Sequence record: MZ234025.1
Direction: 5' to 3' (one strand)
Length of the DNA: 64,000 nt
DNA from: Escherichia phage vB_EcoM-172859UKE1
Position 1 is the stretch's first letter, and the number at the start of each line of letters is the position of its first letter. The position numbers and the translations under genes were made by a program. The notes beneath the pieces are model-generated. The model saw only the letters and a list, made by a program, of their open reading frames with translations, searched no databases and had not been told where the DNA came from. Below are positions 4,105 through 52,546 of this stretch, piece after piece.

Positions 4105-5055
4105 ATGACACGTTCACATTACATTGATTATTTTGCCGGTCTTATCGCTAAAGTTCATGCTCAGCGCGCTTCTGGTGCACTAGGATTTGATGTTCCACAC
4201 CGAGATGTAGTAAGTGGTATTCTTCGCGATTTTGGTACATACACAGGCCAAGAAAATCATATCTGTAAAGATACTCAGAATGCGTATTCTCATTCATTAG
4301 GGACACTGCTTCAATGGTTCAAACGTTCTCGTTTATTATCTTCTACTGTAGCTCGTGATAACATCAAAAACTTTATGAAGCCGAGCTTTATTAAATCTGT
4401 GACATCTAAAACTGATTTAGTTGAATTTACTATTATTAACGATGTTAAAAAGACTCATTTGGCTGATTGGTTATCTACCATTCCTGAAACTAAATTTGCT
4501 GATAAATTTGCTTGTGAATTCAATAACCAAGTGAATATGCTTTTTAAACATTCACGTAAATTATTCACAGGCGGTGATGGTCGTACAAATAAAGTTCATG
4601 TTAAAGATTGGGTTACTGCAGTATTCAAACCAACTGGTAATGGTAACGCATCATTGTCAATTGATATCCAGGTTCCTTATTACTACTCGCGTAATCTAGG
4701 TACCATGAAAGCCGAAGAAATTAATAAGCGCAACAAAACCGTTCGTTCGCTGTCTTATAAACTTTGTATGATGTTACAGACTATGGATGTTGTTGAAATG
4801 TTCAGCGAAACCGAAGATAATGGTTCAATGTTATACAGTTCTCGCATTCAAATTAAGTTGAAGAACCCTAACGAGTATAAGCCTAAGCCTATTAAAGAGC
4901 CTAAAGCAGAAAAAGTTGATAACTTAAGAGAAGAACGCGAATATCTCAAATCTCGTCTGAAAGAAGTCGAAGCCCAGATTGCAGAACAAACTAAATCGTT
5001 AAAAGCTCTGAATGCGAAAGCGGATGGTTTACGAAATGCTATTGAGGTGTTATAA
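4105..5055 (+). CDS. hypothetical protein with C-terminal coiled-coil-like region
   Basis: 316-aa ORF; C-terminal LKSRLKEVEAQIAEQTKSLKAL heptad pattern. Confidence 0.55.
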   Translation: MTRSHYIDYFAGLIAKVHAQRASGALGFDVPHRDVVSGILRDFGTYTGQENHICKDTQNAYSHSLGTLLQWFKRSRLLSSTVARDNIKNFMKPSFIKSVTSKTDLVEFTIINDVKKTHLADWLSTIPETKFADKFACEFNNQVNMLFKHSRKLFTGGDGRTNKVHVKDWVTAVFKPTGNGNASLSIDIQVPYYYSRNLGTMKAEEINKRNKTVRSLSYKLCMMLQTMDVVEMFSETEDNGSMLYSSRIQIKLKNPNEYKPKPIKEPKAEKVDNLREEREYLKSRLKEVEAQIAEQTKSLKALNAKADGLRNAIEVL

Positions 5056-22122: not shown

Positions 22123-24834
22123 ATGAAAGAATTTTACTTAACGGTTGAACAGATTGGTGATTCAATTTTTGAACGTTACATCGATTCTAATGGCCGTGAA
22201 CGTACTCGTGAAGTAGAATATAAACCATCACTGTTTGCTCATTGTCCAGAAAGTCAGGCTACGAAATATTTCGATATCTACGGTAAGCCGTGTACTCGTA
22301 AGTTGTTCGCTAATATGCGTGATGCCTCCCAATGGATTAAACGCATGGAAGATATCGGACTTGAAGCACTTGGCATGGACGATTTCAAATTGGCGTATTT
22401 GTCTGACACTTATAACTATGAAATCAAATACGACCATACAAAAATTCGTGTGGCTAACTTCGACATCGAAGTAACATCTCCGGATGGGTTCCCTGAGCCG
22501 TCACAAGCAAAACATCCTATTGATGCTATCACCCATTATGACTCAATTGACGACAGGTTCTACGTATTTGATCTATTGAATTCTCCATATGGTAATGTAG
22601 AAGAATGGTCTATTGAAATCGCTGCTAAGCTTCAAGAACAAGGTGGTGATGAAGTTCCATCTGAAATTATCGATAAAATCATTTATATGCCGTTCGATAA
22701 CGAAAAAGAATTGTTGATGGAATATCTCAACTTCTGGCAACAGAAAACTCCTGTCATTTTGACTGGATGGAACGTTGAGTCATTTGATATTCCATATGTG
22801 TATAACCGAATCAAGAATATTTTTGGCGAATCTACTGCGAAACGTTTATCACCACATCGTAAAACTCGTGTTAAAGTTATCGAAAACATGTATGGTTCTC
22901 GTGAAATCATTACATTGTTCGGTATCTCTGTTCTTGATTACATTGACCTTTACAAAAAATTCTCTTTTACCAATCAACCGTCGTATTCTCTGGATTACAT
23001 TTCAGAATTTGAATTGAACGTTGGTAAACTGAAATATGACGGCCCTATTTCTAAGCTTCGTGAAAGCAATCACCAACGATATATTTCTTATAACATTATC
23101 GATGTGTATCGTGTATTGCAAATTGATGCTAAGCGTCAGTTCATCAACTTGAGCTTGGACATGGGTTATTATGCTAAGATACAGATTCAATCTGTGTTTA
23201 GCCCAATTAAAACATGGGATGCTATTATTTTTAATAGCCTTAAAGAACAAAACAAGGTGATTCCACAAGGTCGTTCGCATCCAGTTCAACCTTACCCGGG
23301 TGCTTTTGTTAAGGAACCTATTCCAAATCGATACAAATATGTGATGAGCTTCGACCTCACATCTCTGTATCCAAGCATCATTCGCCAAGTGAATATTAGC
23401 CCGGAAACAATAGCAGGAACGTTTAAAGTAGCTCCACTGCATGATTATATTAACGCAATCGCTGAACGTCCTTCAGATGTGTACAGTTGCTCTCCTAACG
23501 GCATGATGTATTATAAAGACCGTGATGGTGTAGTTCCAACTGAAATCACTAAAGTCTTTAATCAACGTAAAGAACATAAAGGTTATATGCTTGCGGCTCA
23601 ACGTAATGGTGAAATAATTAAAGAGGCATTGCATAATCCTAATCTTTCTGTTGACGAACCATTAGATGTTGATTATCGTTTCGACTTCAGTGATGAGATT
23701 AAAGAAAAGATTAAAAAGTTGTCCGCTAAGTCTCTTAATGAAATGTTGTTTAGAGCTCAACGTACTGAAGTTGCAGGTATGACTGCACAGATTAACCGTA
23801 AATTGCTCATCAACTCACTTTATGGTGCACTTGGCAACGTTTGGTTCCGTTATTATGATTTGCGTAATGCTACTGCAATCACAACATTCGGGCAAATGGC
23901 TTTACAGTGGATTGAACGTAAAGTTAATGAATACCTGAATGAAGTTTGTGGTACAGAAGGTGAAGCTTTCGTTCTTTATGGTGATACAGACTCCATTTAC
24001 GTATCTGCGGATAAAATTATTGATAAGGTTGGTGAATCTAAATTCCGTGATACTAACCATTGGGTAGACTTCTTAGATAAGTTTGCACGTGAACGTATGG
24101 AACCAGCTATTGATAGAGGTTTCCGTGAAATGTGTGAATACATGAACAATAAACAACACTTAATGTTCATGGACCGAGAAGCTATCGCTGGTCCTCCGCT
24201 TGGTTCTAAAGGTATTGGCGGATTTTGGACTGGTAAGAAACGTTATGCATTAAACGTGTGGGATATGGAAGGTACTCGTTACGCTGAGCCTAAACTCAAA
24301 ATCATGGGTCTAGAGACTCAGAAATCTTCGACTCCTAAAGCAGTACAGAAAGCTCTTAAAGAATGTATTCGTCGTATGCTTCAAGAAGGTGAAGAATCAT
24401 TACAAGAATATTTTAAAGAGTTTGAAAAAGAATTCCGTCAATTGAATTATATTAGCATCGCGTCGGTATCTTCTGCGAATAACATTGCTAAATATGACGT
24501 CGGTGGATTCCCTGGTCCCAAATGCCCGTTCCATATTCGTGGAATTCTGACGTATAACCGAGCTATCAAAGGTAATATTGATGCACCACAAGTTGTAGAA
24601 GGTGAAAAAGTATATGTTCTGCCTTTACGTGAAGGAAACCCATTCGGTGATAAATGTATCGCATGGCCTTCTGGTACTGAAATCACAGATTTAATTAAAG
24701 ACGATGTACTTCATTGGATGGACTACACTGTTCTCCTTGAGAAGACATTTATTAAACCACTTGAAGGATTCACATCAGCAGCTAAACTCGATTACGAGAA
24801 GAAAGCATCTCTGTTCGATATGTTTGATTTTTGA
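22123..24834 (+). CDS. 43: DNA polymerase gp43 (family B)
   Basis: 903 aa; exonuclease FDIE, polymerase motifs SLYPS and YGDTDS. Confidence 0.97.
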   Translation: MKEFYLTVEQIGDSIFERYIDSNGRERTREVEYKPSLFAHCPESQATKYFDIYGKPCTRKLFANMRDASQWIKRMEDIGLEALGMDDFKLAYLSDTYNYEIKYDHTKIRVANFDIEVTSPDGFPEPSQAKHPIDAITHYDSIDDRFYVFDLLNSPYGNVEEWSIEIAAKLQEQGGDEVPSEIIDKIIYMPFDNEKELLMEYLNFWQQKTPVILTGWNVESFDIPYVYNRIKNIFGESTAKRLSPHRKTRVKVIENMYGSREIITLFGISVLDYIDLYKKFSFTNQPSYSLDYISEFELNVGKLKYDGPISKLRESNHQRYISYNIIDVYRVLQIDAKRQFINLSLDMGYYAKIQIQSVFSPIKTWDAIIFNSLKEQNKVIPQGRSHPVQPYPGAFVKEPIPNRYKYVMSFDLTSLYPSIIRQVNISPETIAGTFKVAPLHDYINAIAERPSDVYSCSPNGMMYYKDRDGVVPTEITKVFNQRKEHKGYMLAAQRNGEIIKEALHNPNLSVDEPLDVDYRFDFSDEIKEKIKKLSAKSLNEMLFRAQRTEVAGMTAQINRKLLINSLYGALGNVWFRYYDLRNATAITTFGQMALQWIERKVNEYLNEVCGTEGEAFVLYGDTDSIYVSADKIIDKVGESKFRDTNHWVDFLDKFARERMEPAIDRGFREMCEYMNNKQHLMFMDREAIAGPPLGSKGIGGFWTGKKRYALNVWDMEGTRYAEPKLKIMGLETQKSSTPKAVQKALKECIRRMLQEGEESLQEYFKEFEKEFRQLNYISIASVSSANNIAKYDVGGFPGPKCPFHIRGILTYNRAIKGNIDAPQVVEGEKVYVLPLREGNPFGDKCIAWPSGTEITDLIKDDVLHWMDYTVLLEKTFIKPLEGFTSAAKLDYEKKASLFDMFDF

Positions 24835-24874
24835 TATAATGCCAAGGACGGCCAACTAATTAAATGAGAGAAAT

Positions 24875-25510
24875 ATGAAAACTACTCCTATTACTATCGC
24901 TATTGACGCAATCGTAAAACAAGCTTCATCTCTTGCCACTATGGCTAAAGTAATTAGTCAAAACCCTGCTCGTTATAATGCTATTCTAGAAACTCTTCGA
25001 CGCCCTGGACTTAGTAATTATGAAAGCCGGGTAATTATTACAGGTGTTGGTAAGAATGCTAATATCGCAACTAAAGCTTCCGAGACTTTTGCTTCACTAG
25101 GTATTCCTAGCATGTATTTGAATACCGGGCATTATTCTCATGGTGACGCAGGATTTATTGCACCTAATGATGTATTAGTTCACATCAGTCGTTCTGGTAA
25201 GACTGAAGAAATGATAGGTGTTGCTAAACATCTTCGTATGATTCGTCCTCAGGTTAAACAGATTCTGTTACATTGTAACCCTGACATTCCACAAGAATAC
25301 GAAGCTCTTTTTGATTATACGTTCTGTACCGGTATCGCGGTAGAAGTTGACGAGAACTCTTTAGCTCCGACAATGTCCACTACATTGTTGTTAGCGCTTA
25401 TCGATACGTTCGCTATCAACCTTTCGTCTGAACGTGGATTTACCTCTAATGATTTCCTTAAGTTCCATCCAGGCGGTGCACTAGGTGCCATGTTACGAGG
25501 CGAACAATGA
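24875..25510 (+). CDS. SIS-domain sugar-phosphate isomerase (KdsD/GutQ-like arabinose-5-phosphate isomerase-like)
   Basis: 211 aa; ...TGVGKNANIATKASETFASLGIPS..., YSHGDAGF, ISRSGKTEE and C-terminal HPGGALG resemble SIS domain of A5P isomerases. Confidence 0.75.
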   Translation: MKTTPITIAIDAIVKQASSLATMAKVISQNPARYNAILETLRRPGLSNYESRVIITGVGKNANIATKASETFASLGIPSMYLNTGHYSHGDAGFIAPNDVLVHISRSGKTEEMIGVAKHLRMIRPQVKQILLHCNPDIPQEYEALFDYTFCTGIAVEVDENSLAPTMSTTLLLALIDTFAINLSSERGFTSNDFLKFHPGGALGAMLRGEQ

Positions 25511-25650
25511 AAGCAATAACAATAGGACTTTTACTATTGATGCTTGTCATGACTATCTACTGGAGCTTAACGGCTCCGGTAATGATTCCAACACTTGTAA
25601 TTGGATGGATTATGATTGGACTACAAGCAAAGTATGAATGCTTTAACTAG
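25507..25650 (+). CDS. possible small hydrophobic peptide
   Basis: 47-aa ORF with two hydrophobic stretches, ATGA-coupled. Confidence 0.3.
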   Translation: MKAITIGLLLLMLVMTIYWSLTAPVMIPTLVIGWIMIGLQAKYECFN

Positions 25651-25691
25651 AATAGTGTACAATACTCCTACTTACCAATGAGGACTTCAAC

Positions 25692-27377
25692 ATGAAAAAA
25701 GCTGTTATTCTTGGTGCTGGATTGGCAACTCGTTTATATCCAATAACGCATCATATTCCTAAGGTGCTTGTTAACTATAAACAAGACACTATTCTGAGCA
25801 ATTTGTATACAATTTATTCTGACCTTGGCGCAGATGAAATTATTGTAGTAGTTCATTCAAAATTTGCTGAAACTGTTCGAGCTTATTGTGAGCAAGAAGG
25901 GTTCAATGTGACTATTCGTACAGTTGATGAAGCGTATGGTTCTGCTTATGCTCTTGCTAAATTACACAAAGATTTAGACGGCCATAATGTAATTGTTAAC
26001 TGGTGTGATATTATTCCTGATTTTGGTTCATGGTCTTGGAATGTTAACGCAATCTATGTTAAGGGTGACGAATGTCGATATAATTTCGACGGTGAAAATA
26101 TCACTAACGTAGGTTCAACAGGTGGTAATGTTGTAGGAATTTATCAGTTCAAAGACTGGGAATTCTATATGGGTTCTACCGATGAGGAAATTCATGAATA
26201 CTGCAAAGGACGTGATTTCGTAGAATTCCTTTACAGCGGCGCATTCAATAAATCAGAGCTTATGAATATCATCGACCTTGGTGATATGCCTAAACTTGAA
26301 AAGGCCCATGAAGTTCGTGAACTGAACCGTAGTTTTAATGCAGTTGAAATTGGCGAAGAAACTGTAACTAAATTCGCATTAACCGAACAGGGTCGAGCTC
26401 TTCAGAAAGATGAGATTTCGTGGTATTTGAAAGTGAAATCAGATTCAGTTCCTCAGTTAGTTTCTGTTAATGAAAATAACTTTGAAATGGAACGCATTAA
26501 AGGTAAGCCGGCATTTGAATATATTAAATCAAAATCAAGTCTTGCTCGTCCACAAATTGTTGATGCAATTTTAGATGCACTGAAATTCAGCACAGACACT
26601 TATTTTGTAAGTCCTGAAACTGTTCGTCGTGATTTCACTAAAGAATTCTATACGAAAGTTATTGATCGTTGTGAAAGCATTCAACCATTGATTGATTCAT
26701 TTGGTAAAATCACACACGTGAACTACACTAAGATTGGACGTCTGAAGCCAATGCTGAAACAAGCTTTAGAACACCTTATTCGTTATCATAACCGTTCTCA
26801 GGGACAGTACTCTGTTATTCATGGTGACCCGAACTTCAGTAATACTATGATTACTGATAACGGCGAAGTCAAGTTTATCGACCCTCGTGGATATTTTGGT
26901 GAAACCAAGATTTACGGGCCAAAATTGTATGATGAAGCTAAAGTGCTTTATGCTGTTTCAGGTTATGATGAATTCAATGCTAATCCGACCTGGGGGCAGT
27001 TTACTATTGATGAAACAACTTGTAATGTGACTATTAACATCAATCCATTAGTTTACAAATATGGAAAGATGAGTTCGTTTAACGAGTATCATCATTTGGC
27101 AGTGGCAATTATCTGGATTGCATTAGGTGGTTATTTCAAGAATAATCCACTTAAAGCGGTAGCCGCATATTATAAAGGTATGGAACTTCTGACTAAGCAA
27201 TTACGTAACATGGGCCGTGTACTTCAAGACGGCTCTATTAGTTATGACGTAGCAGAACCTGTAACGGCTACTCTGATTACAAAAAATCCTGGTAAATGGG
27301 TACTAACTGATAAAGAAACTGGTGTTTCCTATCGTCCAATCGGTGGCGATATCACTCATCAATGGGAACGAATCTAA
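25692..27377 (+). CDS. bifunctional sugar-1-phosphate nucleotidyltransferase / kinase-like protein
   Basis: N-terminal AVILGAGLATRLYPIT (NTP-transferase G-x-G-x-R); C-terminal HGDPNFSN and IDPRG resemble APH/anomeric sugar kinase catalytic motifs. Confidence 0.7.
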   Translation: MKKAVILGAGLATRLYPITHHIPKVLVNYKQDTILSNLYTIYSDLGADEIIVVVHSKFAETVRAYCEQEGFNVTIRTVDEAYGSAYALAKLHKDLDGHNVIVNWCDIIPDFGSWSWNVNAIYVKGDECRYNFDGENITNVGSTGGNVVGIYQFKDWEFYMGSTDEEIHEYCKGRDFVEFLYSGAFNKSELMNIIDLGDMPKLEKAHEVRELNRSFNAVEIGEETVTKFALTEQGRALQKDEISWYLKVKSDSVPQLVSVNENNFEMERIKGKPAFEYIKSKSSLARPQIVDAILDALKFSTDTYFVSPETVRRDFTKEFYTKVIDRCESIQPLIDSFGKITHVNYTKIGRLKPMLKQALEHLIRYHNRSQGQYSVIHGDPNFSNTMITDNGEVKFIDPRGYFGETKIYGPKLYDEAKVLYAVSGYDEFNANPTWGQFTIDETTCNVTININPLVYKYGKMSSFNEYHHLAVAIIWIALGGYFKNNPLKAVAAYYKGMELLTKQLRNMGRVLQDGSISYDVAEPVTATLITKNPGKWVLTDKETGVSYRPIGGDITHQWERI

Positions 27378-27763
27378 TGCACCGTGTAGAAAACATGCTT
27401 AATCTTTGTTTTGATGTCGATGATTGTATAACAGAGTGGAATAACAATCGTGATTACGTGAACTTCAAACCAGACGTCGAAATGGTGTCTGCCATTAATG
27501 CTCTGTATGATGCAGGGCATACCATAACGCTTTACACTGCTCGCGGTATGAAGTCAGTAGGTCCTGGACGTATAGCAATTGACATTCTCCCAAGTCTGAT
27601 TCAGAACTTGGCAAACATTGGCTTGAAGTACCATAATTTGCTAACACATAAACCAGTATATGATTGGATTATCGACGACAAAGCTATGCGTCCTGACGAA
27701 TTCAAAGCTCTTATGAATAAAGGCGAATTCGAAACATTTAAACCATATAAACCGAATCTATAA
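27377..27763 (+). CDS. HAD-superfamily phosphatase
   Basis: FDVDDCIT (DxDxT motif I) near N-terminus; ~128 aa, size of KdsC/GmhB-type phosphatases; TAATG coupling. Confidence 0.7.
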   Translation: MHRVENMLNLCFDVDDCITEWNNNRDYVNFKPDVEMVSAINALYDAGHTITLYTARGMKSVGPGRIAIDILPSLIQNLANIGLKYHNLLTHKPVYDWIIDDKAMRPDEFKALMNKGEFETFKPYKPNL

Positions 27764-27820
27764 TAATTTAAGTAAGACATGCAAAAACCATCGCATCAAT
27801 TAACGCGAGACGCAAAATAA

Positions 27821-28981
27821 ATGAATACTTTTAAAATCGGAACGAATTTTGATTTAGCTCTTCTTGATAAAATCGTAGAGCTCAATAAAACTTATCCTAA
27901 TAGCTTGATAAATGAAGTATACGGCTCTACAAGAGAAATGGCTTTTGTAGCAGCCAGACCTGATTTTAGGCTTCCTGACGTTGACAAAAAGATGTTAGAA
28001 GATTACGTTAAACGTTGTAACGAATTAGGTATTTGCTTTAACTATACACTCAACACGATAAATCCTGGTTCAAAAAGAGAACTAGTTGAGTGGAAGAAGA
28101 AAGCTATTCAGGATTATGTTCAGTATCTTTGGTCAATAGGCGTATGGCGTATTACTATCGCTAACCCTGTTGTTATGGAAATTGTTCGTGAAGTCAATAA
28201 AGACATTGAGATTGAAGTTTCAACAATTCTACATGTCGATGCTGTAACTCAAATCAAATACTTGCATGACCAATATAATATCAAAAAGGTCTGCTGTGGA
28301 ATTCATAAGAACCGTTCAGTTTCTTTCCTGAAGCGTGCAGCAGAGTTTTGCAATAAGAACAATATAATATTTGAAGTTCTTGTAAATGAGTTCTGTTCTA
28401 ATGCTGGTAAAGGGTATACAACACATTGTAGCTATCGTGACTCTTGCTATATTTTCCATAGTACTGATGTTACAGCTGATGATGCTAAATCCTTAAACGG
28501 ATATCCTATGCAGCACTGTATTAAAGCTCGTGATACAGACCCATTTAACTGGTTGAGAACTCGTTTTGTTCGTCCTCAAGATTTGAAACTTTATAATGAT
28601 ATTGGTATCACTCAATTCAAAGTTTCAGGACGTACAGGTAGCACAGACTACATTTTGAAAGTTCTTGAAGCATACGCTTCTGAAAAGTTTGAAGGTAATT
28701 TGTTAGAACTGTGGAAGCCTTTAGAGACTATTTTCACTCTTGAAAACGAAACTGAGTTTTCACATACAGTAAATATTGAAACCTCTTTGTTAGATGGCTT
28801 TTTAGAAAAAAGGTGGTTCAGACATCCAGATTTCGATTGTGCTAATGAAATCTGCGGGACGACGTGTACATATTGTGAAAGATATTATAAACGTCAATTA
28901 TCTAAAAACGGGTTAGCAGAAAACTCTATATCTATTATTGATATAACTAACTCTGATGACGCTTTGAGGTACCCGGAATGA
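27821..28981 (+). CDS. U32-family-like Cys-rich protein (possible Fe-S enzyme)
   Basis: 386 aa; FNYTLNT, EVLVNEFCS...HCSYRDSC, FKVSGRTGS resemble U32 motifs; C-terminal CxxxCxxxCxYC. Confidence 0.55.
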   Translation: MNTFKIGTNFDLALLDKIVELNKTYPNSLINEVYGSTREMAFVAARPDFRLPDVDKKMLEDYVKRCNELGICFNYTLNTINPGSKRELVEWKKKAIQDYVQYLWSIGVWRITIANPVVMEIVREVNKDIEIEVSTILHVDAVTQIKYLHDQYNIKKVCCGIHKNRSVSFLKRAAEFCNKNNIIFEVLVNEFCSNAGKGYTTHCSYRDSCYIFHSTDVTADDAKSLNGYPMQHCIKARDTDPFNWLRTRFVRPQDLKLYNDIGITQFKVSGRTGSTDYILKVLEAYASEKFEGNLLELWKPLETIFTLENETEFSHTVNIETSLLDGFLEKRWFRHPDFDCANEICGTTCTYCERYYKRQLSKNGLAENSISIIDITNSDDALRYPE

Positions 28982-29061
28982 TTTCTAGAAAAACTTTTAA
29001 CCACCAACTTAATGAAGAGATTTTGACTATGAAACTGAACACTAATGACCAAATTCTTAAA

Positions 29062-29083
29062 CAGGCCCATCAGGGCCTGTTTG
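29062..29083 (+). terminator. GC-rich stem-loop (possible terminator) at the 3' edge of the sugar module
   Basis: CAGGCCC-atca-GGGCCTG perfect 7-bp stem followed by TTT. Confidence 0.35.
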
Positions 29084-29218
29084 AAACTAAAGCGGCTAAA
29101 GTGATTAAAGAAACCTGTTCAATTGGAATACTACGCTGATGCATTTCTTCATAGTGTTCTTGGAAGTATCGATGCTGAAGCTTTACGTTATATCAACATT
29201 GTCAAGAAATTCAAATAA

Positions 29219-29241
29219 GCTTTACGAATTGAGTATATAAT
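29219..29241 (+). promoter_or_regulatory. possible MotA-type middle promoter for gene 42
   Basis: GCTTTA 29219-29224, 11-bp spacer, TATAAT 29236-29241. Confidence 0.35.
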
Positions 29242-29260
29242 AAATTGTATTGAGGTAAAC

Positions 29261-29977
29261 ATGGGAAAACATAACACAATGAAATATATCAAAGCCGCAG
29301 ATTTTCAAACCGCATTTAAAGCAGTCAATCGTGAAATTTTAGAAAACCCGGAATTCGTAACTGATTCTCGTATTGGACGTTGTAATGAAATTGGGTCTAT
29401 GACAGTAGTTGTTGACACTCCATCATCATTCAAAATGACCGACCCACGTATTAACCGCATCTCTTATGAATATGCCGAAGACTTCTGGAAGTTTATGATT
29501 TCTGGTGGTACCAACGCAGAAGAAGCGTTTAAGGCATATCCTAATGTCGCTAAATTTATTTCTAAACCAAAATCAGATGTTTTGCCGGCGAACTTCAACA
29601 CTTTCTATGGTCCTCGCATTGCGGCCCAATTACCAGCTCTTCTAAAAGAACTTAAAGAGAAGCCTAACTCCCGAAGAGTTGTGTTCCAAATTCTAGAAAG
29701 TTCTGATCAGGCTTTGCTTGATTCAGACGAAACGCTTGAATATCCATGTACTGACTCAGTGACTTATTATATTCGTGATGGTAAGCTTTATACCCACTGT
29801 CATATGCGTTCTCAGAACTGTGCTGTTGTTATGCAGTTGGATTTTTATCTCCAAGGAAAATTACTTCATTATATCGCTAACGAATGTGGTGTAGAAGTTG
29901 GTGATTATACTCATACCATGGTAAGTGCCCATGTGTTTGAACGTGATTTTGATTATGTTAAAGGATTCCTTGACTAA
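29261..29977 (+). CDS. 42: dCMP hydroxymethylase gp42
   Basis: 238 aa thymidylate-synthase-fold protein; catalytic region EYPCTDSVTYYIRDGKL...HMRSQN parallels T4 gp42; lacks TS PCH motif. Confidence 0.85.
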   Translation: MGKHNTMKYIKAADFQTAFKAVNREILENPEFVTDSRIGRCNEIGSMTVVVDTPSSFKMTDPRINRISYEYAEDFWKFMISGGTNAEEAFKAYPNVAKFISKPKSDVLPANFNTFYGPRIAAQLPALLKELKEKPNSRRVVFQILESSDQALLDSDETLEYPCTDSVTYYIRDGKLYTHCHMRSQNCAVVMQLDFYLQGKLLHYIANECGVEVGDYTHTMVSAHVFERDFDYVKGFLD

Positions 29978-30876
29978 TGGCTATTTTCCGCGTACCTATT
30001 TTGAGTATGCGGTCTTATGAAACTGGACAGTATGCTATCCTTAAGGATGGCAACTTCCAACTTCATTTGCACCGTGCTAATCCGGGTGATGTGATTACAT
30101 ATCCACGTAATGCATCTGATATTAAAGAATGCGAACGTCTTTTTCCAGAATTTAAGTTTGTTCCATTATGGTATAAAGATAACGCGTATAACACTCGTAA
30201 ATATTTCTGGTCTGAAAATGAATTTGTGGTTGATTCATTAATTGCTTATTATGATTGTGATTTTCTAATCACAGATATCACTGGATATGACGGCGCTTTT
30301 GATGTAGAATTCAATTTCAATATCACTGCAGACCCTAATAAACCACGTTTTTATATTGACGAATTCTTAAAAACCGATATGTTGTCGGTTAATCGTTCAC
30401 TTCAAACTACTGTGTTGAATGAACGTCAAAAAGAAGTGCTGGTTAACGCAGGTGCAGATGGTAATAAGATTATCGTAACACAGAAAGTTATACGTCCTTC
30501 CATCATGCAGCGTCTTGTAGGTGATTTGGCTCCTATTCATCTAGATGGTATTTTTCATCCATTTCGAATTAGTGACCCATGCTATCGTTTTGAACAAGTG
30601 GTTGAATGTGCAATTCAATTAGGTCAACCGCTTTATATAACCGATCCAAATAATAGCTTCGACAGAAATAAGTATCCTGAAGAAGCGCTGATTCGAATTT
30701 TTAAACCAACTAAAACTGAGTACTATCAAATTCTTAAAGGACGTCCGAAGATTCAATATTTCGAAAATCCTGAAGAAGTATTCCATCCAGGTCTTGGCGA
30801 GTTCATCTACTTTAATGCTTTAATTTCTTCGCCGTATAATATACCTAAATACGAAGATGTTGTAATCGAGGAATAA
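29977..30876 (+). CDS. hypothetical protein occupying the beta-glucosyltransferase locus (candidate DNA sugar transferase)
   Basis: 299-aa ORF ATGA-coupled to gene 42; no similarity recognised to T4 beta-gt. Confidence 0.6.
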   Translation: MAIFRVPILSMRSYETGQYAILKDGNFQLHLHRANPGDVITYPRNASDIKECERLFPEFKFVPLWYKDNAYNTRKYFWSENEFVVDSLIAYYDCDFLITDITGYDGAFDVEFNFNITADPNKPRFYIDEFLKTDMLSVNRSLQTTVLNERQKEVLVNAGADGNKIIVTQKVIRPSIMQRLVGDLAPIHLDGIFHPFRISDPCYRFEQVVECAIQLGQPLYITDPNNSFDRNKYPEEALIRIFKPTKTEYYQILKGRPKIQYFENPEEVFHPGLGEFIYFNALISSPYNIPKYEDVVIEE

Positions 30877-30877
30877 A

Positions 30878-31426
30878 ATGGCTAAAATTATTTTAGTAGA
30901 TGGCCCGGATAATGCTGGTAAAACAACTTTCATTAATGACATAATGGAAATTAGTGAAAGATATGTAAAGATTGATTTCCCTAAAAGAACGGTTGATGGA
31001 CGTTTCGATGTTAAGTCTCGAAATGAAGTTGGCTGTTTCGAAACGATGTTGAATTATTTAGACCCTACTAAGATTTATCTATTAGACCGTGGATATATTA
31101 GTAACTGGGTTTATGGACGTATTCGTCAAGATGCGGACTCGGTTCTTGACGTTTATGAACAGGATTATGTTCGTCTTTGCCAAAACCATGATGTGTTCAC
31201 AATTATTTTAACACGTAACGAAATGACTGAAAGTTTTGAAGACGACCTTATTACTTTGTCTTCATTCGGTTTTAATACAGTCATTTCACATTTTGAAGAG
31301 TTTGCAATTCATAACAAAATCCAAACGTATCAATTACTTAATCATGATGGTGCTAACAAAGTTATAGGATTTAATGCAAGCGAACGTAATGATTTGATTA
31401 CAGAAATCATCAAATGGGCTCGTTAA
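30878..31426 (+). CDS. P-loop kinase (NMP/sugar kinase-like)
   Basis: N-terminal Walker A GPDNAGKTT and LDRGY region typical of small P-loop kinases. Confidence 0.6.
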   Translation: MAKIILVDGPDNAGKTTFINDIMEISERYVKIDFPKRTVDGRFDVKSRNEVGCFETMLNYLDPTKIYLLDRGYISNWVYGRIRQDADSVLDVYEQDYVRLCQNHDVFTIILTRNEMTESFEDDLITLSSFGFNTVISHFEEFAIHNKIQTYQLLNHDGANKVIGFNASERNDLITEIIKWAR

Positions 31427-31444
31427 GAGCCATTTAAAGTTTTA

Positions 31445-31471
31445 AATGCTGTATAACCCTTAGTATATAAT
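31445..31471 (+). promoter_or_regulatory. possible MotA-dependent middle promoter for uvsX
   Basis: AAATGCTGTA (one mismatch to MotA box), 12-bp spacer, TATAAT 31466-31471. Confidence 0.35.
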
Positions 31472-31524
31472 CATCTTATCTTTTAAACATGAGTAAAATA
31501 TAATGATGCCTATGGAAAAATACA

Positions 31525-32697
31525 ATGTCTGATTTAAAATCTCGTCTGATTAAAGCTTCTACTTCTAAAATGACTGCAGACTTGACTAAGTCTAAGCTGT
31601 TTAATAATCGTGATGAAGTCCCTACTCGTATTCCGATGTTGAATATTGCATTAGGTGGTGCACTGAATGCAGGGTTGCAATCAGGCTTGACTATTTTTGC
31701 TGCACCTTCTAAACATTTTAAAACATTGTTTGGACTGACCATGGTTGCAGCATATATGAAGAAATATAAAGATGCAATTTGTTTGTTCTATGATTCAGAA
31801 TTTGGTGCTTCAGAATCTTATTTTCGTTCAATGGGTGTTGATTTAGACCGTGTAGTTCATACTCCGATTCAATCTGTCGAACAACTTAAAGTTGATATGA
31901 CTAATCAGCTTGACGCGATTGAACGCGGTGATAAAGTTATTATCTTTATCGATTCAATCGGTAATACTGCATCTAAGAAAGAAACTGAAGATGCATTGAA
32001 CGAGAAAGTTGTAGGTGATATGTCTCGTGCTAAGGCACTTAAATCTCTTTTCCGTATTGTGACCCCGTATCTGACTATTAAAGATATTCCGTGTGTTGCA
32101 ATTAACCATACCGCAATGGAAATTGGCGGATTGTATCCTAAAGAGATTATGGGCGGTGGTACAGGTATTCTTTATTCTGCCAACACAGTGTTTTTTATCT
32201 CTAAACGTCAGGTTAAAGAAGGTACAGAATTGACCGGTTATGACTTCACGTTGAAAGCAGAAAAATCTCGCACTGTTAAAGAAAAATCTACTTTCCCAAT
32301 CACGGTTAATTTTGATGGTGGTATCGACCCATTCAGCGGCTTGCTAGAAATGGCAACTGAAATTGGTTTTGTAGTTAAGCCTAAAGCTGGTTGGTATGCT
32401 CGCGAATTCCTTGACGAAGAAACAGGTGAAATGATTCGTGAAGAAAAATCATGGCGTGCTAAAGCTACTGATTGTGTAGAATTCTGGGGACCTTTGTTTA
32501 AACACAAACCTTTCCGAGATGCAATTGAAACTAAATATAAACTAGGTGCTATCTCTTCTATTAAAGAAGTTGATGACGCTGTTAACGACCTTATTAATTG
32601 CAAAGCAACAACTAAAGTTCCGGTTAAAACTTCTGATGCTCCGTCTGCAGCAGATATAGAAAACGACCTTGACGAAATGGAAGATTTCGATGAATAA
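31525..32697 (+). CDS. uvsX: recombinase UvsX (RecA-like)
   Basis: 390 aa; MSDLKSRLIKASTSK... and Walker A GPSKHFKT closely match T4 UvsX. Confidence 0.95.
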   Translation: MSDLKSRLIKASTSKMTADLTKSKLFNNRDEVPTRIPMLNIALGGALNAGLQSGLTIFAAPSKHFKTLFGLTMVAAYMKKYKDAICLFYDSEFGASESYFRSMGVDLDRVVHTPIQSVEQLKVDMTNQLDAIERGDKVIIFIDSIGNTASKKETEDALNEKVVGDMSRAKALKSLFRIVTPYLTIKDIPCVAINHTAMEIGGLYPKEIMGGGTGILYSANTVFFISKRQVKEGTELTGYDFTLKAEKSRTVKEKSTFPITVNFDGGIDPFSGLLEMATEIGFVVKPKAGWYAREFLDEETGEMIREEKSWRAKATDCVEFWGPLFKHKPFRDAIETKYKLGAISSIKEVDDAVNDLINCKATTKVPVKTSDAPSAADIENDLDEMEDFDE

Positions 32698-51445: not shown

Positions 51446-52546
51446 ATGAAAGTTATGTTTATCCCATCTCGTGCAGCCCCATTTAATCCTGACCGTGTAC
51501 AAGGTGGCCTTGAAGCAGTACATTTAAATGTGTTGAAATATCTTGTGTCCATCGGTGCTGATATTGATTATATCGGCTTTGATAATGACACGTTTGGTGA
51601 CTGGAAAGTTACACACCATCCTGTTGGTCATCTGGCTAAATTCAGTCTAGGTATGAGTTATACTATGGCTCGTAAGATTGTTGAACTAGCCAGCATTAAT
51701 GAATACGATTTCGTTGTTACAATGGAACCGACCAAACTAACGGTCCAAGCAATTAAAGATGCTGGACTCTCTAAAGTTCATAAGAATTTTATGGCTACAC
51801 CGTTTGAACCAGTGTCTCGTGGTATTGTTCAAATTTGGGATCAGACTATCCAGATTCACAAGAACGGTGGGAAGAGCTATGCTCCTACTAAAGCATTCCG
51901 TGAATTTGAACGTAAATATTGTCATATGACTTCAGCTCTTACTGACAAAATTGATTATGACTACTGGCGTGAAAATCCATTATTTGAACCTGATGACTAC
52001 CCGGTTATTTGTTTGAATGAAAAACCTGAAGTTCTTCCGGCAACTGAGTTGATTATTAGTGCTCAACGTTATGACACTAAGATGCGTCGCACTGATGTTG
52101 CTCTTGAAGCAATTAAAGCACTAGGCGAAAATGGTATTGGTTATTGTCCAAGCAAATGGGCACCACCAGCTAAATATCCTGTTATTATTGATGCTCCACA
52201 CAGTGAAATCATGGAACGTCTTAAAACAGCTAAAGCACTTATTAATACATGCCCTGACACAGGTACGGTAGAGAATAGTTCTATTGAAGCTATCTCTAAA
52301 GGTGTCCCTGTAATCCAGTTAGTTTTTAAGGATTATCCTCATGCGACATTCGAATACGATCCAGATACTGTGCGTGTAGAAATTGATTCCTCTACTCCTA
52401 AGAAAGAAGTAGTTGCGCTTTACACAAAAGCTGTATTAGAATTCACTGACACATACGAAGCTCGAGTTAAACGTGCTGAAGCAGTATGGAAGAAGTATAA
52501 CCGAGATGCAGTTGTTGCGATGTGGGATAAAATCTTCACAGCGTAA
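51446..52546 (+). CDS. putative GT-B-fold glycosyltransferase
   Basis: 366 aa; MKVMFIPS start and C-terminal TGTVENSSIEAISKGVPVIQ resembling GT4-type motif; weak inference. Confidence 0.5.
   Translation: MKVMFIPSRAAPFNPDRVQGGLEAVHLNVLKYLVSIGADIDYIGFDNDTFGDWKVTHHPVGHLAKFSLGMSYTMARKIVELASINEYDFVVTMEPTKLTVQAIKDAGLSKVHKNFMATPFEPVSRGIVQIWDQTIQIHKNGGKSYAPTKAFREFERKYCHMTSALTDKIDYDYWRENPLFEPDDYPVICLNEKPEVLPATELIISAQRYDTKMRRTDVALEAIKALGENGIGYCPSKWAPPAKYPVIIDAPHSEIMERLKTAKALINTCPDTGTVENSSIEAISKGVPVIQLVFKDYPHATFEYDPDTVRVEIDSSTPKKEVVALYTKAVLEFTDTYEARVKRAEAVWKKYNRDAVVAMWDKIFTA

Follow-up and report, generated by a model that had tools for sequence, protein, structure and literature searches.

A 299-codon open reading frame (ORF) of Escherichia phage vB_EcoM-172859UKE1 probably encodes the GT-B core transferase of a cytosine-arabinosylation module, which would put the first arabinose on 5-hydroxycytosine (5hoC). 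The ORF begins with ATG and runs from 29977 to 30876 on the plus strand, as read from the ORF list and the raw sequence, in a 64,000-nucleotide (nt) stretch of DNA (MZ234025.1; hereafter the window) from a phage of the Mosigvirus group, an RB69-like T-even phage. The group of RB69 gp46:47, DLP3 gp79 and Thanatos TH1_063, to which it belongs, has been published both as the putative first arabinosyltransferase (bioRxiv June 2025; NAR July 2026) and as a candidate with a glycosyltransferase (GT) fold (bioRxiv 2024; AEM December 2025). The initial annotation of this DNA had proposed a candidate novel DNA sugar transferase. Its reasoning was sound and the transferase candidacy is kept, yet the proposal is a rediscovery, as RB69 gp46:47 had been published as a candidate.

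In the proposed pathway (features in Table 1), a thymidylate synthase (ThyA) homolog encoded upstream would make 5-hydroxy-deoxycytidine monophosphate (5-hydroxy-dCMP, or 5hodCMP), which would end as 5hoC in the phage DNA. Meanwhile, the isomerase, the AfhE-like kinase/pyrophosphorylase and the HAD phosphatase would make uridine diphosphate (UDP)-D-arabinofuranose (UDP-Araf). This donor would be bound in the C-terminal Rossmann domain of the 299-aa GT (P195-F-R197-x-x-D200, T222-D-P-N225, H270 and E275), and the enzyme would move the first arabinose onto the cytosine 5-hydroxyl to give an alpha-linked, base-proximal sugar. A second enzyme, the gp3-type GT, would then add the second arabinose. 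The base chemistry, the activity of the ThyA homolog and the synthesis of UDP-Araf have been demonstrated by others; we infer the first transfer by the 299-aa protein, together with its donor, its stereochemistry and the form of its acceptor.

The 299-aa ORF is a conserved phage gene

By tblastn, 348 phage records contain a homolog of the ORF (full-length in 340), and they come from phages of Escherichia, Shigella, Acinetobacter, Klebsiella, Serratia, Enterobacter, Proteus, Yersinia and other hosts. The ORF matched PHROG 3891, a family of 'unknown function', with an E-value of 3e-156. When the extra base in the RB69 copy was removed, 14 of 900 nt differed between the two phages and 12 of these 14 differences were synonymous, leaving two amino acid changes. 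Because of this conservation and purifying selection a chance ORF was rejected; the gene is real and conserved among phages. A structural protein was also weighed as its identity and rejected.

The ORF aligned end to end with RB69 ORF047c plus ORF046c (NC_004928, 3598..4498, complement), where an extra T splits the RB69 gene. Lee et al. (NAR 2026, PMC13326640) treat RB69 'gp46:47' as one protein and state the same extra-base split. No substantive difference was seen from RB69 gp46:47, DLP3 gp79 and TH1_063 (PHROG 3891; 'arabinosyltransferase 1' in PMC13326640), and the copy in the window is intact. At Asn113, the residue of the window and of more than 90% of homologs, the RB69 record instead reads Ile; either this near-invariant site is truly substituted in RB69 or the old record contains a second sequencing error.

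The gene is joined to the ThyA homolog by a 1-nt overlap (TAA 29975-29977, ATG 29977-29979). The initial annotation had described coupling by ATGA to gene 42; an overlap is indeed present, but its motif is TAATG. It had also placed the ORF between gene 42 and uvsX, in the slot that T4 uses for beta-gt. The slot agrees with T4, because the annotated order there is 43-imm-42-b-gt-segA-uvsX-40-41. The gene order holds too, although uvsX is not the direct neighbour, since the gene for a 182-aa P-loop kinase intervenes. Promoter and terminator scans of 24700..31700 gave only chance-level hits.

The upstream ThyA homolog points to 5-hydroxycytosine as the acceptor base

The upstream gene had been labelled gene 42, with 5-hydroxymethylcytosine (hmC) as the modified base. 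This label is mistaken. The encoded protein shares only 25% identity with T4 gp42, and it matched the crystal structures of the phage HY126 homolog (PDB 9iqc and 9ir2) across all 238 residues with an E-value of 8e-161. It carries L143E, D169N and N177D in E. coli ThyA numbering, whereas T4 gp42 retains D169. The numbering follows what we take to be the E. coli ThyA reference sequence, with which the conserved Cys146 and Arg166 align correctly. D169N is the signature of 5-hydroxy-dCMP synthases, and RB69 gp48 makes 5-hydroxy-dCMP with flavin and O2 (PMC13326640). The signature and the 9iqc match thus point to 5hoC, not hmC, as the acceptor base in the phage of the window. In RB69 DNA, beta-D-Araf-(1-3)-alpha-D-Araf is ether-linked to cytosine C5-O (PMC13326640).

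This separates the 299-aa GT from the enzymes of T4. The T4 beta-GT family acts on hmC supplied by a gp42-type dCMP hydroxymethylase, while the enzyme encoded next to the 299-aa GT is of the 5hodCMP-synthase type. T4 beta- and alpha-glucosyltransferases use UDP-glucose as donor and hmC as acceptor; the 299-aa GT would use UDP-Araf and 5hoC, with a direct ether to the ring (PMC13326640).

The order of these genes extends far beyond the coliphages. In the window, in Shewanella phage Thanatos and in two metagenomic contigs (L004 and L005), a ThyA homolog with L143E/D169N/N177D lies directly 5' of the GT and a kinase homolog directly 3' of it. The two distant metagenomic homologs (37-38% identity, on contigs of 355 kb and 122 kb) keep the order ThyA homolog (D169N), GT, kinase. 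TH1_063 has a TAATG overlap with the ThyA homolog and an ATGA overlap with the kinase gene, and in L005 the overlap between ThyA homolog and GT is ATGA. One of the two distant contigs carries an AfhE-like gene, and the other has a flavodoxin-like gene just 5' of the ThyA homolog. The latter, a Flavodoxin_2-family gene at 4739..5293 of L005 (JGI contig Ga0643544_0000138), fits a flavin-reductase partner for a flavin-dependent 5-hydroxy-dCMP synthase. New in this analysis is that the triad of ThyA homolog, GT and kinase is tightly coupled and conserved even in distant metagenomic phages.

The 299-aa protein is predicted to adopt a GT-B fold

The protein was searched against sequence families and known structures. 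Pfam gave no family at E<=0.1, NCBIfam gave no match, and PDB sequence searches with the ORF and with a 93-sequence family profile returned noise only. T4 beta-GT, T4 alpha-GT and the gp3-type GT showed no similarity to the family by blastp or by hhalign of the family profile. As the initial annotation had stated, resemblance to T4 beta-gt is lacking (blastp E>0.7 against T4 beta-GT and alpha-GT, hhalign probability <1%), and a T4 beta-GT homolog was rejected as the identity of the ORF (best blastp E 12; hhalign probability 0.6%). In a family-profile HMMER search of 1.84 billion representative proteins, only 229 clusters matched. Therefore, the family is small and isolated, and by sequence it stays separate from GT4, which is very large.

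An AlphaFold model built from the 93-sequence alignment reached a pLDDT of 95.9 and a pTM of 0.90, compared with a pLDDT of only 37 for the single-sequence run. Its beta and alpha elements alternate in two halves, which form two Rossmann-like beta/alpha/beta domains with a central cleft between them, the architecture of the GT-B superfamily. Against viral models, Foldseek retrieved the KARL-1 ortholog (TM 0.95) and the two RB69 half-ORFs (99% identity), followed by viral glycosyltransferases only. The predicted fold is thus GT-B, nearest to GT4-type enzymes. Structure prediction and a fold search, which the initial annotation had recommended, therefore led to a GT-B fold; its remark that GT-A and GT-B signatures are absent is right for the sequence (no Pfam or NCBIfam match) but wrong for the predicted fold. 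Assignment to a non-transferase family, which it had named as counting against a transferase, was not obtained from Pfam or NCBIfam, as neither returned any match.

The model shares the two-Rossmann-domain architecture of retaining GT4-type GT-B enzymes such as sucrose-phosphate synthase (6kih), BshA, MshA, PimA and HepE, and the best structural matches span about 245-270 aligned residues at only 7-12% identity. A conserved Arg (R197) in the first loop of the C-terminal domain would be equivalent to the donor-diphosphate position of GT4. Compared with these enzymes, the 299-aa GT is 60-100 residues shorter, matches neither Glycos_transf_1 nor Glyco_trans_4 of Pfam, and would have a nucleobase hydroxyl as acceptor.

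Across 246 members of the family, the conserved residues are S10-M-R12, Y19, D24-G-N26, P43, Y66, N69-A70, R74 and Q151 in the N-terminal half, and P195-F-R197, D200, Y203, T222-D-P-N225, H270 and E275 in the C-terminal half. Within the C-terminal segment F-H270-P-G-L-G-E275-F-I-Y-F, H270 is kept in 96% and E275 in 86% of members. By analogy with general GT-B architecture, R197 and H270/E275 would lie at the donor site.

Two Serratia phages, PS2 and Muldoon, carry a distant relative of the GT. The PS2 relative (NC_024121, 24150..24683) shows 24% identity over 174 aa, and the Muldoon relative (BFVD A0A5P8PH66) gave a TM of 0.74 at 18% identity. Since Thomas et al. 2018 (PMC6024577) listed both phages with homologs of T4 b-gt and T2 ba-gt, members of the fold family may also take part in cytosine modifications other than arabinosylation.

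A second glycosyltransferase tracks di- and tri-arabinosylation

TH1_063 of phage Thanatos is a true ortholog of the 299-aa GT, with 48% identity (E 9e-86), equal length and equal position. Thanatos DNA carries one pentose on cytosine (PMC12838424). The whole Thanatos genome gave no gp3-type GT (best tblastn E 0.12), nor was a GT domain seen in any of ten large hypothetical proteins. Therefore, the 299-aa family is the sole GT-fold protein found there, and Lee et al. likewise describe a single arabinosyltransferase in Thanatos (PMC13326640).

The window itself encodes a second GT-B enzyme, of the RB69 gp3 type, whose PDB entries 9iqz/9ir0 are described as 'phage HY126 glycosyltransferase (with UDP)' and provide a UDP-bound structure. 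It resembles the 299-aa GT in fold, phage and pathway, but differs in its unrelated sequence and restricted distribution. The gp3-type GT occurred in 211 records, essentially only Mosigvirus-like coliphages with one copy each and Acinetobacter phages with two copies each. RB69, Bas46 and NP are di-arabinosylated and DLP3 is tri-arabinosylated (PMC13326640, PMC13390438, bioRxiv 10.64898/2025.12.19.695335). The copy pattern thus matches the number of sugars: a universal GT is joined by no, one or two accessory GTs. That the gp3-type GT tracks the di- and tri-arabinosylating phage groups is new in this analysis. Thomas et al. 2018 (PMC6024577) had put forward ORF003c alone as the arabinosyltransferase of RB69, leaving ORF046c/047c out of consideration.

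Results that speak against a transferase

Several results weigh against the proposed role. By inspection of the conserved segment, no E...E pair with 7-residue spacing (the canonical GT4 motif EX7E) is evident, and its place would be taken by His270 and the single conserved Glu275. It showed no match to the CAZy GT4/Pfam Glycos_transf_1 profile in the Pfam, NCBIfam, PDB and exhaustive searches, and sequence profiles assigned it to no curated GT family. By Foldseek E-value, moreover, UDP-N-acetylglucosamine (UDP-GlcNAc) 2-epimerases ranked marginally first (1.7e-6 against 4.5e-6 for MshA). As these epimerases are GT-B-fold non-transferases, the protein might instead be a nucleotide-sugar remodeller of the UDP-sugar 2-epimerase kind, or a non-catalytic partner of another enzyme. 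Cooperative GT pairs do exist, since DLP3 gp76 and gp77 are active only together (PMC13326640), and the activity of the 299-aa family is so far a prediction. A match to the Epimerase_2 profile together with epimerases as the closest structural neighbours was not obtained for the 299-aa protein, and we consider a GT-B-fold non-transferase very improbable.

The biochemical reports on the family also count against a transferase. No positive enzymatic assay for the 299-aa family was found in the accessible literature. Single DLP3 GTs, the ortholog gp79 included, did not arabinosylate 5hoC-DNA with UDP-Araf or UDP-arabinopyranose (UDP-Arap) (PMC13326640, data not shown there). TH1_063 transferred no pentose in an assay that used unmodified acceptors (PMC12838424). 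Instead, liquid chromatography-tandem mass spectrometry detected UDP-xylose when purified TH1_063 was given uridine triphosphate (UTP) and xylose-1-phosphate (PMC12838424). Since TH1_063 is a true ortholog, the 299-aa protein could by this result be a UDP-pentose pyrophosphorylase, i.e. a sugar-1-phosphate uridylyltransferase, rather than a transferase. That assay measured one end-point, on protein that had been purified from E. coli by its His tag (PMC12838424), and we speculate that carry-over of a host uridylyltransferase could have produced the UDP-xylose.

The predicted fold is GT-B and not that of a nucleotidyltransferase, and the 299-aa ORF has neither an NTP_transferase match in Pfam or NCBIfam nor a GxGTRL-type motif. 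Both are found in the neighbouring AfhE-like protein, which matches NTP_transferase of Pfam in its N-terminal part (E 8e-10), APH-like kinases in its C-terminal part and nucleotidyltransferases of NCBIfam, and which contains the GxGTRL-type motif MKKAVILGAGLATRL. In the summary of AfhE and AfhF activities given in PMC13326640, HY126 AfhE is reported as a UDP-arabinose pyrophosphorylase. Given the GT-B fold, the lack of a nucleotidyltransferase profile or motif and the NTP-transferase domain in the neighbour, pyrophosphorylase is highly unlikely to be the physiological role of the 299-aa protein.

The downstream kinase and the level of the first transfer

The kinase gene starts 1 nt past the GT stop codon. 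Homologs of the kinase were found in 343 phage records against 348 for the GT, with essentially equal genus counts. T4 has no dedicated kinase at its beta-gt locus, whereas the 299-aa GT always has one directly after it. In addition, seven clusters of the family (P0226, P0228, P0236, P0237, P0250, P0258 and P0260) have a C-terminal extension of about 170-230 residues. The P0228 extension matched Thymidylate_kin of Pfam at E 1e-4, a score under the gathering threshold. When five aligned extensions were compared with the kinase family by hhalign, the probability was 87% (E 4e-6) over 134 columns, which include the P-loop and the DR...S(D/N)xVY segment. The fused domains were not detected by phmmer or by small HMMs built from the kinase and the HAD protein of the window, and only the hhalign comparison of the aligned extensions linked the C-terminal extension to the kinase. 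With moderate confidence, the GT and the kinase thus appear to be fused in some phages. This fusion and the near-perfect co-occurrence of the two genes are new in this analysis.

Eight other clusters (P0139, P0148, P0151, P0152, P0168, P0198, P0222 and P0233) carry an N-terminal HAD-like domain ahead of the GT. In the metagenomic homologs this HAD-type domain is about 155-190 residues long, with a DFDG (DxDG) motif and a GDD motif, and hhalign detected no relation to the HAD phosphatase of the module.

The kinase raises the question of when the first sugar is attached. RB69 gp159, a gp1-type deoxynucleoside monophosphate (dNMP) kinase, already phosphorylates 5hodCMP (PMC13326640), and a second kinase therefore needs another substrate. 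The GT might accordingly act before replication. It would arabinosylate 5-hydroxy-dCMP, the kinase would phosphorylate the product and the polymerase would incorporate a glycosylated deoxycytidine triphosphate, so that the triad would be a linear nucleotide pathway (dCMP to 5-hydroxy-dCMP to 5-O-arabinosyl-dCMP to the diphosphate), in which the gp1-type dNMP kinase may not accept glycosylated dCMP. This scheme suits the triad order with overlapping or abutting junctions from Mosigvirus through Thanatos to the two distant metagenomic contigs, the nearly one-to-one occurrence of GT and kinase, and the fusion proteins. If true, it would account for the failure of the purified GTs to act on 5hoC-DNA and for the module having a kinase of its own. 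According to the authors of PMC13326640, their data do not separate a first arabinosylation at the mononucleotide level from a post-replicative one.

Other observations argue against glycosylation of the nucleotide. DLP3 gp76 and gp77 add the third arabinose on DNA, and 5-hydroxydeoxycytidine (5hodC) enters DNA when gp48 and gp159 alone are expressed (PMC13326640); 5hoC-DNA is therefore a plausible natural intermediate. The acidity of the 299-aa protein (isoelectric point (pI) 5.1; family median 5.35) could be taken to favour a nucleotide acceptor, yet T4 alpha-GT is acidic too (pI 6.1) and acts on DNA, so that the comparison is uninformative. The fusion evidence itself consists of moderate profile scores. 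All phage DNA glycosylations characterised so far are, to our knowledge, post-replicative, and a nucleotide glycosylated before replication would, as far as we know, be the first such case among pathways of DNA modification. On balance we judge the nucleotide-level scheme unlikely, and hold a slight preference for 5hoC in DNA rather than a 5-hydroxy-dC nucleotide as the acceptor of the 299-aa GT.

Other genes of the sugar-nucleotide module

The features discussed in this study are collected in Table 1. The sugar-nucleotide module consists of the isomerase, AfhE-like, HAD phosphatase and U32 genes, which are located between the polymerase gene and that of the ThyA homolog. The RB69 counterpart of the isomerase is gp55 (PMC13326640). 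Thanatos-1 (MT457552) has homologs of the AfhE-like, HAD, ThyA-like, GT, kinase and U32 genes, and tblastn found no homolog of the window isomerase there (best E 4.7). Hence, Thanatos either uses a host isomerase or makes a different pentose. Between the window and Thanatos, identity is highest for the U32 protein (82%), followed by the ThyA homolog (72%), the AfhE-like protein (54%), the GT (48%) and the kinase (44%). The PDB contained no structure of the 299-aa GT or of the kinase, the AfhE-like or the U32-like protein, while the HY126 ThyA homolog and the gp3-type GT are present.

Among the members of the U32 family are the O2-independent hydroxylases RlhA (5-hydroxycytidine in rRNA), TrhP (5-hydroxyuridine in tRNA) and UbiU/UbiV, and the U32-family protein of the window gave a weak NCBIfam match to UbiU (E 9e-4). 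It could provide an oxygen-independent route to 5hoC that complements the O2-dependent, flavin-using ThyA homolog. RB69 gp50 is labelled only 'sugar or heterocycle reductase' (PMC13326640).

Two small ORFs on the plus strand also lie in this region. The first (25507..25650) encodes a very hydrophobic peptide of 47 residues; nearby, the RB69 record annotates ORF054c (36 aa) and notes a similarity to the 42-imm intercistronic region of T4. The second (28978..29139, 53 aa) overlaps the U32 gene at its end, and at this place RB69 is annotated with the 79-aa ORF049c.

Table 1. Positions of the features discussed, numbered from the first letter of the window.
Feature	Coordinates	Strand	Relation or basis
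Putative arabinose-5-phosphate isomerase (SIS domain), acting first in the UDP-arabinose module	24875..25510	+	Pfam SIS; PHROG 5670, E 2e-116
Predicted bifunctional sugar kinase/UDP-sugar pyrophosphorylase, AfhE-like, 561 aa	25692..27377	+	RB69 gp52:53; Pfam, NCBIfam
Predicted HAD-type sugar-phosphate phosphatase, AfhF-like	27362..27763	+	RB69 gp51; NCBIfam EcbF-BcbF capsule biosynthesis phosphatase, E 5e-13; PHROG 1238
U32-peptidase-family protein	27821..28981	+	RB69 gp50; Pfam Peptidase_U32, E 7e-11
Thymidylate-synthase-family enzyme, 238 aa, 5-hydroxy-dCMP synthase type	29261..29977	+	Pfam Thymidylat_synt; PDB 9iqc
TAATG stop/start overlap joining ThyA homolog to GT	29975..29979	+	Direct sequence reading
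Predicted GT-B-fold protein, 299 aa, putative first (nucleobase-proximal) arabinofuranosyltransferase	29977..30876	+	Ortholog of RB69 gp46:47, DLP3 gp79 and Thanatos TH1_063
P-loop, thymidylate-kinase-like nucleotide kinase, 182 aa	30878..31426	+	RB69 gp45 ortholog; PHROG 761 thymidylate kinase, E 2e-45
uvsX	31525..32697		Gene after the kinase
Second GT-B glycosyltransferase (RB69 gp3/ORF003c type)	51446..52546	+	About 97% identity to PDB 9iqz/9ir0

Implications

Arabinosylated 5hoC is a recently recognised hypermodification of phage DNA, which blocks type II restriction enzymes and lowers targeting by some CRISPR-Cas systems. It is found in many coliphages that are candidates for therapy, as well as in Acinetobacter, Klebsiella and Serratia phages. 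Attachment of the first sugar is the key step of this pathway, and the 299-aa ORF is the leading, already published candidate for it.

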